A DNA stretch of 64,000 nucleotides from Naegleria gruberi (Eukaryota), in NCBI GenBank assembly GCA_000004985.1, contig GG738874.1, one strand, 5' to 3'. The notes under the pieces were generated by a model. It was not told the origin of the DNA, did no database searches, and saw nothing but the letters and a program-made list of their open reading frames with translations. This document shows positions 41,382-48,757 of the stretch, piece after piece (the first letter of the stretch is position 1; each line of letters begins with the position of its first letter). Position numbers and translations under genes: made by a program.

Positions 41382-43865
41382 CTAATCAAATAAGTTGAAT
41401 GTGTTTGATGCTCCATTGTCATTCTTCTTTCTATCTCTGAATGGGAATGGAATAAATCCAGGAGATTGATCACCAGCCAAGTGTGGAGAAGTGTGAGATG
41501 GAGGAGAGTGATGATTTGGAGTTTGTTGTGGTGGAGAATACATTGAATTACTAGTTGGATATCCAACTGGAGAAAAACCAAACGGATTATAAACAACATT
41601 AGGATTTGGCATTTGAGCAAATCCTCCCAAGAATGGCGTTCCTGGAGCAGTTCCCCAATTGGCCTGTGGATTAGAGGAAATTCCACCATTATGCCAATTT
41701 CCAAATACACTGTCATAAACAGATGGAGCATTGGATTGTTTTTGTGGTGGTGAGCTTAATAACTTGCTCATCAAATTTGACTTTTCTATTGGTGAACTTA
41801 GTCCATTATTTACAGGAGTTGAAATTCTCTGGTTGAATAATTGATCATTGATGAATGGTGAATCTACATTGTTTCTCATGAATGGCTTTTCGATATAGTC
41901 GTTTCCAGCTTGGCTTGAAATGTTAAGCTTGGAAAGTGATGAAGGACTATCATTTTTCATTTCTGGAAGGGATGTGCTGTCAGTCTTCCAAATATTACTG
42001 CCTCCTGCAGGAGTAATGAAGCCATTGGTGCTTGTTGTAGCATTGTTAGGAAGAGCAGTAAAACTCTTTGGTTCAATATGTTGATGGTCCAAAGTCATAC
42101 TGTCACTAATGTCATCCACAATAATTTCATCATTAATATCATCCAACAAGTCTCCGTTAATTACAATACTCTCGTCATCAATTTTATCGTCATCTTCAAT
42201 ATCATCTTCAAAGCTTGCTGTTGAGAAGGCTCTGTCATATTCTCTGTAATAAAAACTGATAATCTTGTCATTGATGAGTTCATTCATTTGCTTTTGGAAT
42301 ATCTTGTTCAATGATTGTTTCACATTGGAGTTTTCATTTCTAGTTGAAAAGGTTCCAAGATTACCATTCAATGGATTGTATCCTAGAATGTCGTGATAAA
42401 ATCCATTTTCTCCATCATCAGCAAGTCTTTGATCATCGACAATTTTAGCATATAAGAAGCAAAGGTTATTGCACAATGCTTCATTATCATAGAGGTAGAT
42501 TTTTCTATTTTGAAGGAAATATTCAATGTAGAGTACCAATGAATTGTAAATATCAAAATTCCTAATAGAATCAGATTCATAAAGATCTGAATAGTGGGAG
42601 ATGAGCTTGGCAAAGAAAGCTTCGTTGAAAATCTTACTATAATTATTGGAATTTTGTTGATCCACAAACAAGTTCATGATTGTTGCTTTGAAAAAGTAGG
42701 AGCTGTCATTTTCAGGAACTTCTGCAAAAATTTCCTCAATAATATTCAAATTATCATCATCCAATTCTTCAATAGTAGATTGAGATTGGAATAACTTTCC
42801 ATGGAGAGTTAAAAGTTTGAAACTAGGTTTTCCTTTCATCTTTGGAACGTTATTCTTGAAAAGAAGAATAATATTATCTCTAGCAGATTTGAATGGTCTG
42901 TGAATACAGCTCAAACTTCTATAATATCTATAGATGGCCAAAAAGTAGTCATTTTGATAGGTGGAAATTACAGCCAATTGATTCCAAGCATTGCCGAAAT
43001 TGTAAGATAATTGAACGGCTTTCTTGTAGTACTTTTCACTCTTTGAAAAGTCCATATTCTTAGCATTTAGCAAGGTTTTATATCTGAACAAGTCACCTCG
43101 TTGGAGAAGAACTTTTTCCTTCTGGAATAGTTCCGAAATCTTTTTATAAAACTCCTTATACTCCAAAATACTATCATTAAGAAACTTGATGTATAGATCC
43201 TTTCTCTCCTTCAATACAGGGTTTCTTCTGAATAATTCAATCAATTTGTAATAAAAAGTTTTCCAAATTTGCAAAATCAAATCATACTTCTTGTCATACT
43301 CTGTATCGGAGAGTGCAATATTTTGATATTGTTGAATACAAGTTGAACGAAGAGAACAAAAGTCTTGTGGTTCTCTTTCTCCGCTAAGACTTTTAATTAC
43401 ATTAGGGATCTTTCCTTCATCTGAGAGGAATGCCAAGTATTGTTCCTCATGTTTTTTAACTAGGGAGCATTGAAGTTTAGTTGATTTTTCATTGCTTGGT
43501 TTCGGAGTTGGATTTGATGGATTTTTCAATAACTGTGGAACAGCAGTTACATTGTTTGTTCTAGTTGATGATGTTGTTGTAGTTACATTATTAGGTATCA
43601 TCATAATATTTCCGCGTTGTTGCTGTTGATTATTTGTACTAGATGATGTTGCTCTACCGTTTGATGGATGACCACTAGTGGTTGTTGTTGTTGCTGGTTT
43701 TTCTTGTTGTTGGGCAGTTGTTTTTAGGGTGAGAGGATTTTTGTAGAATCCTTTTCCTTCCACTCCTTGTTGTATTTGTTGTGGTTTTTGCCCACCATTA
43801 TTAATACCACCATTGTTTTGCTTGTTGTTGATCATCGAACGAGGTGGATTCGTTGAGGATGACAT
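41382..43865 (-). CDS. SMG7/EST1-like 14-3-3/TPR-domain protein (nonsense-mediated decay / telomerase-associated family)
   Basis: 827-aa ORF with ATG at 43865. Q/N/T-rich N-terminus. Central block YNFGNAWNQLAVISTYQNDYFLAIYRYYRSLSCIHRPFKSARDNIILLF matches the EST1/SMG5-7 hallmark (...G.PYNQLAVL....AVYYY.RSL....PF..A..NL..LF). Acidic D/E tail. Confidence 0.6.
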   Translation of the reverse strand: MSSSTNPPRSMINNKQNNGGINNGGQKPQQIQQGVEGKGFYKNPLTLKTTAQQQEKPATTTTTSGHPSNGRATSSSTNNQQQQRGNIMMIPNNVTTTTSSTRTNNVTAVPQLLKNPSNPTPKPSNEKSTKLQCSLVKKHEEQYLAFLSDEGKIPNVIKSLSGEREPQDFCSLRSTCIQQYQNIALSDTEYDKKYDLILQIWKTFYYKLIELFRRNPVLKERKDLYIKFLNDSILEYKEFYKKISELFQKEKVLLQRGDLFRYKTLLNAKNMDFSKSEKYYKKAVQLSYNFGNAWNQLAVISTYQNDYFLAIYRYYRSLSCIHRPFKSARDNIILLFKNNVPKMKGKPSFKLLTLHGKLFQSQSTIEELDDDNLNIIEEIFAEVPENDSSYFFKATIMNLFVDQQNSNNYSKIFNEAFFAKLISHYSDLYESDSIRNFDIYNSLVLYIEYFLQNRKIYLYDNEALCNNLCFLYAKIVDDQRLADDGENGFYHDILGYNPLNGNLGTFSTRNENSNVKQSLNKIFQKQMNELINDKIISFYYREYDRAFSTASFEDDIEDDDKIDDESIVINGDLLDDINDEIIVDDISDSMTLDHQHIEPKSFTALPNNATTSTNGFITPAGGSNIWKTDSTSLPEMKNDSPSSLSKLNISSQAGNDYIEKPFMRNNVDSPFINDQLFNQRISTPVNNGLSSPIEKSNLMSKLLSSPPQKQSNAPSVYDSVFGNWHNGGISSNPQANWGTAPGTPFLGGFAQMPNPNVVYNPFGFSPVGYPTSNSMYSPPQQTPNHHSPPSHTSPHLAGDQSPGFIPFPFRDRKKNDNGASNTFNLFD

Positions 43866-43982
43866 TTTTTAATCAAATCAGCAACTTTATTAATAGAACG
43901 AAACTGCGTTAACTTTTAAGTTGTATTGTAATTTGCACACAATACCAATTTTGTTTAACACAAACATTTTACCTTGCGATTT

Positions 43983-46583
43983 TTATTTCGTTGTTTCAAT
44001 TAGGGAATGAATAACTTCTTCACAAACCAGTATCCACTCTAATTGTTCAGTTTCAGTTTGTGTCTTCATTACCAAATCTCCACGGCTGGTCTGTGTGATT
44101 GTAAAGCTCAGTTCCGTGTCTGATTTCTTAACATTTGATTTGGCTGTAAATTTAATTTCTTCTGGGTTGATAGATTTGATTGTCTTGTACACTTTCAAGT
44201 GAGGATCCATACTTCCCAACACTATCCAACGTTTTTTCCAAACATCCTTGCTTGCTTTCTGTAATTGAAAAGTTAAAATACTTGAACTAAAAAAACACTT
44301 ACCTCACTTCTGGTCATGACAAGTACATTTCCACACTTGATCATTTCGTTGGTGAGACTATCCTCTTCTTCCTCTTCATCCAGAGAGTCATTAAGATTTT
44401 GTTGATGTTTCTTGAACCCTCCCTTGATTGGAACGACAAGCTTTCCTCCTGTTTTTTGTCCTATTCCTTTAACAGTTTGATTTTGTGAGAGTTGATTCAA
44501 AATACTACCCTCCTCAAATTTAACCTCCTTGTTGTTTGTTAGGAAAACATCCAACTCATCCTTAATCATCTTACTTTGGTTTTCCAACATTTGTACATAA
44601 TCTTTCAACTCTTGAGTGGTGAAATTCATTTCCAACTCACTAACATCCTTCTCTGAAATATTAGAAAGAGACTCACTAGATGAAACAGTATCGGCTGCTT
44701 GAGATTGTTTTGGTTGCTCTGTGGATGTAGGATTTGTAATGAGTTGGTCCATATAGTCTCTAATTTCATTAGATGCAGTCTCCACTATTCCCTTAATTTC
44801 CGATCTATCTTTTTTAATTTTCATCAGCTCGTCAATTACTGTTGTCACTGCACTAGAGTACTGTCCATGGTCTTGCAAGAGTTCATCCTCAGTATTTTCA
44901 TTACTAGCTACCTGAGTGGAGAGCTTCAACTTGAGGTGTTCATTATTATTTTGTAGTTCCGTGCATTGTCTCTTATATTCAACCAGTTCTGAAATGAGAG
45001 AGGAAGTTTTTTCTCCCATTGTAATATTCAGCTGGTTTTCTCTTCCTTTCAAAATTTCCACTTCAAGTCTCAATCTCTGAATTTCATTTTCCTTGTCTTG
45101 TATCAGTTTATCCTTTTGTTGAACTTGCTTTAACAGTAAAGAGTTTGCATAGCTGAGCTTTTCATTATTATTTTTGGAAGCTTTAAATGCAGACAATTCC
45201 GATTCCAAAGACAAGTTTTGTGCTCTCAAGTCGTTAATTTCTTGCTTGGCAACTGCTAGTTGCTTTCTATATTCAGAGTCACTAGTTTCCAAATTGACTT
45301 TTGGTTTGTTTTTAATATTTTTAGCACTGTGACCAAATCTTAGGGATGAAATTGTTTCTTCCTCGTTAATTGTACTCGGTGAGCAATTGACCATGAGTGT
45401 GGTTCTTGCATTTCCTCCAAGGGCATCTTGTAAAAGTTTAGTTAGTTTACTTTCTCTGTAAGGTACGTGGGTGCTCTGCAAACGTTGTCACACCATTATA
45501 ATAAGAAAACTTACATTCTTCTCAGTTAAGGCGTTAATAACCTTAGCTAGAGTGGCAAGACTCTTATTGATTGTCTTGGCTTCCTCTAATCTCAACCCTG
45601 TGGCTTCAGTCTTGGAAACTTTTTCCTGAAAAAATATGAGAATGAGTTTTAAAAGAAATCAAAAACATACACTTCCCGCAAGATCTACAATATACAATTT
45701 GGAAACTATTTTCTGACCTTTTCTAGTGTCATGTTGTGTGACAGTTATTGAGAAGATGGTGTGACTTCTACTACTGTCTCTATTCATTTCTGATAATTGA
45801 TGATTAGATTTACAACAATAATTCAAAACTTACTAGTTGAGGAAATTTTCTTATTCTTATTACCAATTTTCATCAATCTCAATACTTCCTCCTCGCTAGA
45901 CACGTACAACTCTGAGAGATCTTCCACATAAAAGTTCTTTTCGTTAGTGTCTTCCTTTACATTTAAATTTTGTTTTGAAGCTATCATACAGAGATTATTT
46001 AATCACAATCTCACTAAACTTACGTTCGAATAAATCATACAATTTTTCCATGTAAACCTCAAAGAATGATACTTTGACTGTGAACTCTACATGGTCTGGT
46101 GACTGATCTATTGCCTCAAACAAACCACATACCATTCTTGGAGCGATACCTCTCTCATCCTAAATAATTAAATCAATGAATATCACATATGATGTATTAG
46201 AATCCACAATCCATCAATACTACAATACATACAAGTTTGTTCTTCTTCGGCAAATTCATCATGGTGTATGTTTTACCGGAACTAGTTTGACCATAAGCAA
46301 AAATCGTACAATTGTATCCCTTGATAATATCTTCAATGAGAGGTTTTCCGACCGATTCAAATACACTAGATTGACTTGCTGTAATTCCAAATACTTCATC
46401 AAAAGTAAAAGTAATACCCTTAGAGGGCAGAGTCACTGTCTCGTGATCATTAATTTCCATACAATGTCTTCCTCCTGCTTCCATCTCCAAAGTTGGTCTA
46501 AATCTACAAACAACTTGCACCCGACTCCTCGTAAAACTCTGACTCGAGGTAAGGGATGAAGAGCTAGAGCTGTGATGATACAT
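43983..46583 (-). CDS. Kinesin-1-type motor with coiled-coil stalk and C-terminal PH domain (770 aa), 7 exons: 46583..46233, 46159..46024, 45980..45834, 45789..45671, 45625..45515, 45475..44303, 44258..43983. Introns 73, 43, 44, 45, 39 and 44 nt.
   Basis: Motor: [10 protein letters not shown]-loop [15 protein letters not shown]. Exon 2 [15 protein letters not shown]...[18 protein letters not shown]. Exon 3 [36 protein letters not shown]. Exon 4 [10 protein letters not shown]...[10 protein letters not shown] (switch II DLAGSE). Exon 5 EKVSKT...[15 protein letters not shown]. Exon 6 [34 protein letters not shown] plus a 330-aa coiled coil. Exon 7 [24 protein letters not shown]...[14 protein letters not shown] is a PH fold. 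All donors GTAAGT/GTATGT, acceptors YAG. Phases consistent. Confidence 0.88.
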
Positions 46584-46756: not shown

Positions 46757-48757
46757 CTAGATAAAACTTGTCTTTTCTCTTTCCATGTTTTTAAGGTGAG
46801 AGGACCATTGTTTGGAGAGTCGTTCTTGCTGTTGATATTCTGAGGCAAGTCGATTGGCACGTTCCTCTTCACTCTCGAGGGAGGGCATTACTACAACAAA
46901 ATCAATGGATAGTATGAAACAGGCAGCTTCGGTGGCAGTTTGGAAAATGTTTCTCTTCACTCCACACGGTTCTAGAATGGTGGAGAAGGTTATCTTGTCA
47001 ATGTATTTCTTTCCATTGTTGCCACTGGTGTGATGTGGTGGCAGGAGACTCATGATGGAATTTCTTGAAAGATTGAGTCCACAATAGGTATTTCCACTTT
47101 CATGTTGTAAGGATAGTGTCTCAATAACTTTGGATGCATTGAGTCCAGCATTGTCACACAGAATGAAAACAATTTCCTCTAAAGATTTTCCAAATGATTT
47201 CATGCACTCGAGAATGGATAGGGCGTGGCTATTGGTGGTTTTGGTTGACTTGTCAAGACAATACTTGTGAAGGAGAGTTTTTAAATGCATTTCAGTGGCA
47301 CCTCCACCGAGATGGCAAATAGGTTCTCTGATAACATTTTCTAAAATACACAATGCATCGTGCATACTTCTCTTCGATTCTTCCAGAATATTTTCCTCTC
47401 CTCTGAGTACGATGGTCATTGTTTCATCATGGCCTGACTTTTTAAATCCAGACAAGATACAGTAAAAATCCTCTCCAACAGTTTTCTCCTCAAACATGGA
47501 ACATGTTCCATACAATTGTTCATTCTCATACATGGTAGAAAGATCTTCAATGGAGGAGAATATCTGACCACCCAATGACTTGACAATTGATTCAATGGTT
47601 TTAGAATCCATCTTTCCAAGTGAGGTGATTCCATTTTGTGTAAACCACTGAGTGGCAATATCTCCAGTAGTTTGTAAATTAAGAATAAGATCACACTTTG
47701 TGTTGGTAATGACGTCCAGTTGTCTCTTTAGCAAATTCCACTCTGTTTCAATAAAATTCTGATATTGGATTGGATTATTAATAACAATTCTAGCAAATTC
47801 TTTCTGGTGCTTGAGTTCCAATTCATGATTGAGGATGAGGATTTTTGGATTTTCAATTTTCTTTTGTTGTTGTTCATATCCTGCATAGTAAAAAGGTCTC
47901 CTGAAACAAATTCCCTCAATTACGAAAGAATCTTGTATTGAAGAACCAGGAATTGGGCAAAATTGAATATTCTCAATAGAGAATGCATCTCCTATTTGAG
48001 AGTTTCTTTCTTGTTGAACTGTTCTCAATTTATAGTATGAATCCACCAGTAGTGAGGCAAAAAAGGATGAATGATTTTTCAAAATCTTACTATTGAAAGG
48101 TACTCTCACAAGTTCAATCAAAATATTTCTAGTACTTTCATTCCAATCCTCCAGATTAAGATGCAGCTCAATTTCCTTCAATTCCTTCTCTACAAGTTGA
48201 TGTGCCAGCTGAAAATCAATATTAATTTCTCTCAAATTCCAAGAAAACAAACCTTATAGCTCTGTATAATAGTATGAACATTGTATCCAAGATTCAGTAA
48301 ATGTTTAGCTTGCCTCAACAAGGCACAAGCCAACAATACCACACTTGTTGTTCCTTTCACATGTCAATAAAAAATCAAGCAATGACAACCTACCATCACC
48401 CACTTGTTCATCCTGTGTCTGGCTAATATTCACCAATAATTCAATTACAGGTTCCGTACTAAATGCCCATTTGATACTCTCAACTTTTGATTGTTGTTTA
48501 TCATTTGGTCCTTTTTTAATTTTCCTTTTCAAATATTGAAGAATGGTGGCTCCATCGTTGGTGATTGTGATTTTACCACTCTCCCTCTCACAAAACAATT
48601 TATCTCTTCCGAATGGTCCATAGGTAGTTTTCAGAATGGATCCGATTTTAAGAGCAGCCTCTATATTATCTAAAACAACTTCTAATCCATTCCTTCCTCC
48701 TGCAATGGAAGATGAAGAAGCAGAAGAAGAATTTTCGGAAGTTATTGTTCTTTGCAT
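46757..48757 (-). CDS. Divergent group II chaperonin-like protein (TCP-1/CCT family fold; BBS-type chaperonin-like candidate). 2 exons: 48757..48394 and 48252..46757. Intron 48393..48253 (gtaggt...ataag, 141 nt).
   Basis: Exon 1 ...ALKIGSILKTTYGPFGRDKLF...ITITNDGATILQYL...QTQDEQVGDG matches the chaperonin equatorial N-terminus (LGPxGxDK, TNDGATIL, QDxEVGDG). After splicing (phase 1) the protein continues GLFSWNL..., so the canonical GDGTTS phosphate loop is absent. Later ICHLGGGATEMHL (GGGAxE) and C-terminal TEAACFILSIDFVV are chaperonin-like. Confidence 0.65.

Follow-up and report, generated by a model that had tools for sequence, protein, structure and literature searches.

The 64,000-nucleotide (nt) stretch of Naegleria gruberi contig GG738874.1 (assembly GCA_000004985.1) analysed here, which we refer to as the window, carries on its minus strand a gene for a kinesin that combines a kinesin-1-like motor with a PH domain at its C-terminus. 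Splicing of the window DNA places the ATG at 46583 and the end of the TAA stop codon at 43983, and the coding region between them (43983..46583) consists of seven exons separated by six GT-AG introns, which together give a single open reading frame of 770 amino acids (aa). The product is letter-for-letter identical to EFC43403.1 / XP_002676147.1, 'kinesin-1 [Naegleria gruberi]', UniProt D2VIS7, and the gene is therefore already part of the public annotation and not a new gene. The same identity marks the window as nuclear DNA of N. gruberi. An earlier first-pass annotation, made from the DNA sequence alone, had proposed a kinesin-1-type motor with a C-terminal PH domain, and all of the protein strings on which it relied, 46 residues in one set and a further 15 residues, are present in the spliced protein.

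In gene order on the minus strand, exon 1 (46233..46583, 351 nt) encodes a Ser-rich N-terminus and the start of the motor, including the P-loop GQTSSGKT (46269-46292), and is followed by intron 1 (46160..46232, 73 nt, GTATGT...TTTAG, phase 0), exon 2 (46024..46159, 136 nt), intron 2 (45981..46023, 43 nt, GTAAGT...ATAG, phase 1), exon 3 (45834..45980, 147 nt) and intron 3 (45790..45833, 44 nt, GTAAGT...TCAG, phase 1). Exon 4 (45671..45789, 119 nt) contains switch I, NRDSSRSH (45761-45784), together with the first part of switch II, which is interrupted as DLAGS|E by intron 4 (45626..45670, 45 nt, GTATGT...TCAG, phase 0). Exon 5 (45515..45625, 111 nt) and intron 5 (45476..45514, 39 nt, GTAAGT...GCAG, phase 0) precede the long exon 6 (44303..45475, 1173 nt), in which the motor ends; the neck linker, the stalk of helices, an IAK-like motif and an acidic linker are encoded there too, as is strand beta1 of the PH domain. 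Intron 6 (44259..44302, 44 nt, GTAAGT...ACAG, phase 0) lies within the PH domain, after strand beta1, and exon 7 (43983..44258, 276 nt including the stop codon) encodes the remainder of this domain. The proposal of six introns of 39-73 nt with GTAAGT or GTATGT donors thus stands as read from the sequence, all acceptors being AG.

Three independent lines of evidence establish that this seven-exon model is correct. It coincides with the published model XP_002676147.1, and the N. lovaniensis orthologue (locus L003, 62% identical) has six introns of 72, 52, 45, 47, 52 and 59 nt at the same codon positions and in the same phases (0,1,1,0,0,0), with the four internal exons equal in length in the two species (136, 147, 119 and 111 nt). 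The third line comes from comparison with an environmental metagenome contig, L001, in which exon divergence from the window is 0.72%, intron divergence 12 times as great at 8.68%, and divergence of the 3′ flank 2.66%. This contig (ENA ERZ929261 / run ERR1078381, 2942 nt) is 98.15% identical to window positions 43500-46364 and the sample it came from therefore contained a strain of N. gruberi or something very closely related to it. Its kinesin gene had been broken up at the introns by gene calling of the prokaryote style.

The motor domain occupies aa 20-343 (45311..46526, a span that includes introns 1-5) and is matched by Pfam PF00225 (E = 3.9e-109) from aa 48 to 342. All three signatures of the kinesin superfamily, the P-loop GQTxxGKT, SSRSH of switch I and DLAGSE of switch II, are present, and judged from its sequence the motor is catalytically intact. 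In a phmmer search of PDB, kinesin-1 chains scored 282-356 bits, with the Neurospora kinesin 1goj the best at 356 and human, rat and fly KIF5 at 282-321, whereas other families scored lower (KIF3B 261, KIF11 about 250 and KIF1A 228 bits). Among the best 120 matches in a database of 5.8 billion proteins, those from outside Heterolobosea are mostly fungal, dictyostelid and protist proteins, and where they bear a family name it is nearly always kinesin heavy chain, KIF5 or dictyostelid Kif3. The protein thus resembles kinesin-1 (fungal Nkin/Kin1, animal KIF5 and dictyostelid Kif3/Kif5) in its N-terminal motor and in its closest similarities, and the layout that follows the motor is also that of kinesin-1: a 14-residue neck linker (aa 340-353; 45281..45322) of the form K-x-IKN-x-x-x-VN, which aligns with KSIKNKAKVN and KTIKNVVCVN of reference kinesin-1 sequences, leads directly into long helices that begin at aa 354. 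The 22-residue string that the first-pass annotation had taken as a kinesin-1-style neck is a different element. It corresponds to the alpha5/L13 region, is conserved in all kinesins, with near-identical versions in the kinesin-2, -4, -5 and -15 references, and is not diagnostic of a family. Within alpha5 the protein reads SKLTKLLQD, as against SVLTWLL in kinesin-3 references, and no Pfam match to an FHA domain was found in the 770-aa protein.

To place the motor within the superfamily, we used as references 47 motor sequences from the trimmed 330-column alignment in the supplements of Wickstead et al. (2010; PMC2867816), with family labels taken from the table of that paper where sequences were looked up by name, and flanking sequences labelled by resemblance ('like'). 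The window protein, four orthologues and eleven kinesin-1 matches were added with mafft --add --keeplength, and neighbour-joining (NJ) trees were built with 300 bootstraps. The PH-bearing kinesins form a clade in 100% of replicates, and this clade groups with kinesin-1 in 99.7%. Kinesin-3 alone is recovered in 99%. The first-pass annotation had named motor-domain phylogeny as a check, with placement within kinesin-3 as the refuting outcome, and the clade grouped with kinesin-3 in 0% of replicates. Canonical kinesin-1 without the PH clade received 18%, and a sister relationship between the PH clade and two canonical Naegleria kinesin-1 genes (the K1-1B pair) 48%. In a second NJ run, to which two divergent PH-bearing paralogues (P0139 and P0161) were added, all PH kinesins grouped together in 98%, kinesin-1 with all PH kinesins in 92% and canonical kinesin-1 alone in 75% of replicates. 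On these sequence comparisons the motor is a kinesin-1 in the broad sense, grouping with kinesin-1 to the exclusion of other families, as had been proposed. Nesting inside kinesin-1 and a position as its sister both fit the NJ trees.

The only published superfamily phylogeny that includes the gene is that of Wickstead et al. (2010; PMC2867816), in which the sequence Naegr_34430 matches our motor; in the table of that study it has a hidden Markov model score of 469.5 and the architecture 'KISc', the PH domain not having been detected there. The same source lists Naegr_33335 and Naegr_72809 as canonical kinesin-1 paralogues in N. gruberi. A 2024 preprint on Naegleria microtubules, which rebuilt the tree, counts four kinesin-1 genes in N. 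gruberi, with model numbers other than 34430 (jgi_68781, 72809, 79591 and 88151).

Between the neck linker and the tail, an AlphaFold (AF2) monomer model of the exon-6 product predicts an alpha-helical stalk of roughly 250 residues (44534..45280) with helices at aa 354-480, mostly with a predicted local distance difference test (pLDDT) score >90, aa 491-534 and aa 563-602, followed by disorder. The first two helices are heptad-periodic (z = 4.3 and 3.6 against shuffled controls), a pattern that fits a dimerising coiled coil, and dimerisation through the stalk may be expected on this basis. Orthologues from N. lovaniensis, Willaertia magna and Acrasis kona, together with several environmental fragments, align with the protein over its full length. 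Global alignment with hhalign paired a 12-residue segment with the LEQLTxVxxQL coil that binds cargo in kinesin-1, with a probability of only 4.8%; the cargo-binding coil is thus not detectably kept in the N. gruberi protein, unlike in kinesin-1, and we make no claim of stalk homology to it.

The disordered tail contains a conserved 12-residue motif (aa 633-644; 44408..44443) with the consensus K(L/V)(V/I)VP(L/I)(K/R)(G/A)G(F/Y)KK, which includes KLVVPIKGG in the window protein. Its position is invariant and its sequence nearly so in all eight tails examined. Canonical kinesin-1 tails have, at the same relative place, the IAK region [RK]I[AV][KR]P[LI]RGG (with IAK motifs such as QIAKPIRPG and RIAKPLRGG), so that both share a short Pro-containing motif followed by GG near the C-terminus. 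A loose pattern that accommodates both forms matches 65 of 125 proteins, each of them once and in the tail, and none of 6250 shuffles, and the intermediate forms RIVKPLRGG and KIIKPIKGG bridge the canonical IAK and the VVP motif. Local alignment of the two motif regions with hhalign gave P = 7e-4 over 17 columns, a value that is partly circular since the tails were cut around the motif. Homology of the tail motif with IAK is likely on these grounds, rather than established. Between the motif and the PH domain lies a conserved acidic Ser/Asp/Glu linker (aa 650-665; 44345..44392) with a net charge of -4 to -10 across orthologues; it is kept as an acidic Ser/Thr-Asp/Glu run that resembles clustered phosphorylation sites of acidophilic kinases.

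The protein ends in a PH domain (aa 665-766; 43998..44347, a span that includes intron 6) with seven predicted strands and a C-terminal helix that bears an invariant Trp. Against Pfam PH (PF00169) the window protein scores 16.2 bits at full length and 21.7 bits with the tail alone, below the 25.1 cut-off, but all eight tails match PF00169 (best E = 1.2e-14), the further family members P0125 and P0126 reach 41.1 and 37.1 bits, and the Willaertia orthologue carries a precomputed match. The AF2 model of the tail has seven strands (model positions 39-117) and a C-terminal helix (121-142) with pLDDT about 90, and the top 50 Foldseek matches in PDB are all PH domains (among them Akt, pleckstrin C-PH, SKAP55, CERT, ASAP1, TAPP1 and ARAP3), with target-normalised TM-scores (TMt) of up to 0.82. 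An E-W pair in the C-terminal helix is invariant across orthologues. Assignment of the tail to a true PH fold is secure, is also supported by the orthologue Pfam matches, and bears out the domain call of the first-pass annotation. In the orthologue alignment strand beta2 reads W-K-x-(R/K/V)-W with an invariant Lys; its basic pair W-K-x-(R/K) is conserved, and with charges of +1 to +10 these PH domains are net basic. Two other models, P0002 (N. fowleri, 647 aa) and P0163 (366 aa, from a JGI metagenome), end in ...DVSI... at the site of the last intron and also lack parts of the N-terminus. This intron interrupts the PH domain, following strand beta1, and both models appear to read through it; they thereby lose the PH domain, which hides the architecture.

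This architecture was found in Heterolobosea only (Naegleria, Willaertia and Acrasis) and in metagenome and SRA contigs, and at the sequence level it is conserved as a whole over at least three heterolobosean genera. Canonical kinesin-1 matches, by their Pfam annotations, differ in having no PH domain. When 1.84 billion representative proteins were searched with a tail profile, only 23 matched at E <= 1e-10 and three at E <= 1e-30, and those that span the whole tail are the PH-kinesin family itself. Among the best 150 matches the only kinesins belong to this clade and there is no kinesin-3, so that the PH domain is not specifically similar to any kinesin-3 PH domain within that set. None of the kinesin-3 models tabulated for N. 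gruberi by Wickstead et al. (2010; PMC2867816) has a PH domain. Because of these two observations, it is most likely that the PH tail was acquired within Heterolobosea, independently of kinesin-3. The first-pass annotation had regarded a PH tail as normally a kinesin-3 feature, and this holds in so far as kinesin-3 has one; it is not exclusive, as the same survey already lists KISc-PH proteins outside kinesin-3, in kinetoplastid groups and as the divergent Naegr_71914 (PMC2867816). The Leishmania/Trypanosoma X1/X2 kinesins and Naegr_71914 thus resemble the protein described here as discoban kinesins with a non-kinesin-3 motor and a PH tail, but their motors are divergent or ungrouped, whereas the motor of the N. 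gruberi protein is well conserved and kinesin-1-like. The paralogues P0139 (905 aa) and P0161 (994 aa) are longer, divergent kinesins in which large insertions expand loops of the motor and the C-terminus carries a related PH domain (...QCGTVQ...PEWKSRWLVL...). They lack the IAK-like motif and form a sister clade to the family studied here (98% NJ bootstrap), and this clade may correspond to Naegr_71914, classed as 'divergent' with a KISc-PH architecture (Wickstead et al., 2010). Searchable papers yielded nothing specific on a kinesin-1 with a PH domain, and no main text open to searching contains NAEGRDRAFT_34430 or 34430; a heterolobosean kinesin-1-like subfamily with an IAK-like motif and a PH tail seems to be undescribed in the searchable literature.

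Taken together, these features suggest that the kinesin-1-related, PH-tailed protein is probably a dimeric plus-end motor that binds membranes directly, a function we infer from sequence. Dimerised through its heptad stalk, it would walk to microtubule plus ends as a homodimeric transport motor. Its two PH domains would attach it to acidic-lipid membranes, or to a membrane protein, with avidity from the dimer by analogy with Unc104/KIF1A and without light chains or adaptors. Kinesin-1 motors move processively towards plus ends, and association with light chains is confined to animals even among them. In carrying a C-terminal PH domain and, on this analogy, in binding membrane cargo with dimer avidity, the protein resembles the kinesin-3 motors Unc104, KIF1A and DdUnc104. 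In the absence of cargo, the IAK-like motif may fold back on the motor heads and hold the motor off. Naegleria amoebae have no cytoplasmic microtubules and build microtubules only for mitosis or in the transient flagellate stage (PMC9036621), and because of this the motor would be expected to act in flagellates or during mitosis. A more tentative extension, which we hold to be less likely than not, is that a kinesin subfamily peculiar to Heterolobosea, nested in kinesin-1 or sister to it, kept the kinesin-1 neck and an IAK-like tail, replaced adaptor-based cargo binding with a lipid-binding PH domain independently of kinesin-3, and is used only when transient cytoplasmic microtubules are present.

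Several points weigh against a membrane-bound, kinesin-1-type transporter. With no interphase microtubules in the organism, a role in vesicle transport is less obvious, and no expression, localisation or biochemical data for the gene were retrieved from the searchable literature. The Lys of IAK (Lys/Arg in kinesin-1) is replaced by Val in the tail motif, and the hhalign support for the motif is, as noted, short and partly circular. In animal kinesin-1 the function of IAK depends centrally on this Lys. Phosphoinositide-binding PH domains are marked by the motif K-Xn-(K/R)-X-R across beta1 and beta2, and a check of lipid-binding residues, as the first-pass annotation had suggested, gave a divided answer. 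Taking Akt K14, R23 and R25 and Grp1 K273 as the lipid-binding sites, our alignment has an invariant Lys at the equivalent of Akt R23 and R, K or V at that of R25. In the same alignment the beta1 Lys position (Akt K14, Grp1 K273) is hydrophobic (V, I or M) in all orthologues. Most PH domains show no specific lipid binding, and only a minority bind phosphoinositides specifically. As for the family assignment, the trees were built by a distance method from few taxa and 330 trimmed columns; similarity to the window protein decided which kinesin-1 sequences were added. The Bayesian analysis of Wickstead et al. (2010; PMC2867816) places Naegr_34430 outside the well-supported Kinesin-1 node, in the tentative X11, a small well-supported group that also holds Dicdi_kin2 and two other sequences.

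Two alternatives concern what the protein is. That it is a true kinesin-3 of the Unc104/KIF1 type, in which a PH tail would be expected, is suggested by the C-terminal PH domain alone, and we reject it as having practically no chance of being correct: the motor belongs to a different family by the bootstrap values and the low KIF1A score given above, the FHA match is lacking, alpha5 has the wrong sequence for kinesin-3, and the PH-profile search returned no kinesin-3 among its best 150 matches. At 770 aa the protein is also short beside KIF1-type kinesin-3 motors, which exceed 1500 aa. The PH tail could instead be an artefact of gene modelling, in which a kinesin was fused to a neighbouring PH-domain gene, and the fact that P0002 and P0163 end before the PH domain might be taken in this sense; they stop, however, just where read-through of a GTAAGT-type donor would be expected to end them. 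A fusion is excluded because the last intron falls inside the PH domain, with strand beta1 in exon 6 and the rest in exon 7. The position and phase of that intron are conserved in N. lovaniensis, exons diverge far less than introns from L001, and the same architecture recurs in N. lovaniensis, in Willaertia and Acrasis, and on several environmental contigs. We therefore reject this explanation too as highly improbable.

Two further alternatives accept the protein as it stands and differ on what it does. The PH domain might bind protein instead of lipid, its ligand being perhaps a small GTPase, a phosphoprotein or a partner in the cytoskeleton, in which case a protein receptor would recruit the motor, or microtubules would be cross-linked to another structure. 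The loss of the canonical beta1 Lys of high-affinity phosphoinositide binders in all orthologues, the sub-threshold Pfam score of the window protein and the general rarity of specific phosphoinositide binding among PH domains all speak for this, while the conserved beta2 basic pair and the net basic charge speak against it. The closest solved folds are lipid-binding PH domains, which also points away from protein binding, but similarity within the PH superfold does not predict the ligand; on balance we consider a protein-binding role unlikely, though it deserves serious attention. The motor might otherwise have a structural or organising part in the apparatus of flagellates or of mitosis and not carry vesicles, for example by anchoring or sliding cortical microtubules against the plasma membrane. 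Restriction of microtubules to mitosis and the flagellate stage would suit such a role, and microtubules could be tethered to membrane by a dimer whose two PH domains bind it. The sequence has no sign of microtubule cross-linking and no second microtubule-binding region was identified in it, and transport motors typically have such a long stalk and a neck linker of the kinesin-1 kind; we regard an organising role as rather improbable.

If the protein is indeed a membrane-binding transport motor, it would represent a natural experiment in which a kinesin-1-type engine, possibly with tail autoinhibition, is combined with a lipid-binding cargo module of the kinesin-3 type. It would illustrate convergent solutions to the membrane attachment of motors and could provide a simple, adaptor-free kinesin-1-like transporter for reconstitution in vitro. 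It also bears on how cytoplasmic transport is arranged in a cell in which microtubules exist only in mitosis and in a short-lived flagellate stage. Kinesin tails are known for free domain shuffling; with such shuffling common and the gene already annotated, current understanding is not challenged. There is in addition a problem of annotation: at least two Naegleria models lose the PH domain through a missed last intron of 44-59 nt, and the 2010 kinesin census lists the protein as motor-only (PMC2867816).

The genes on either side of the kinesin are also conserved. Directly upstream, on the minus strand, lies a large exon of a gene for a TCP-1/CCT chaperonin subunit (46757-48250; PF00118, E = 2e-74), the end of which is about 170 nt from the kinesin ATG, and the same neighbour is found in N. 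lovaniensis (L003 3876-5862). An intron-less open reading frame of 827 aa (41382-43865, minus strand) begins 117 nt downstream of the kinesin stop codon. It contains an EST1 DNA/RNA-binding domain (PF10373, E = 9e-19), which makes the product SMG5/6/7- or Est1-like, its ends are long low-complexity stretches rich in Asn, Gln, Thr and Ser, and it is syntenic in N. lovaniensis (L003 8771-11305). The gene order CCT/TCP-1 chaperonin, kinesin and EST1-domain gene is thus kept in N. gruberi and N. lovaniensis.

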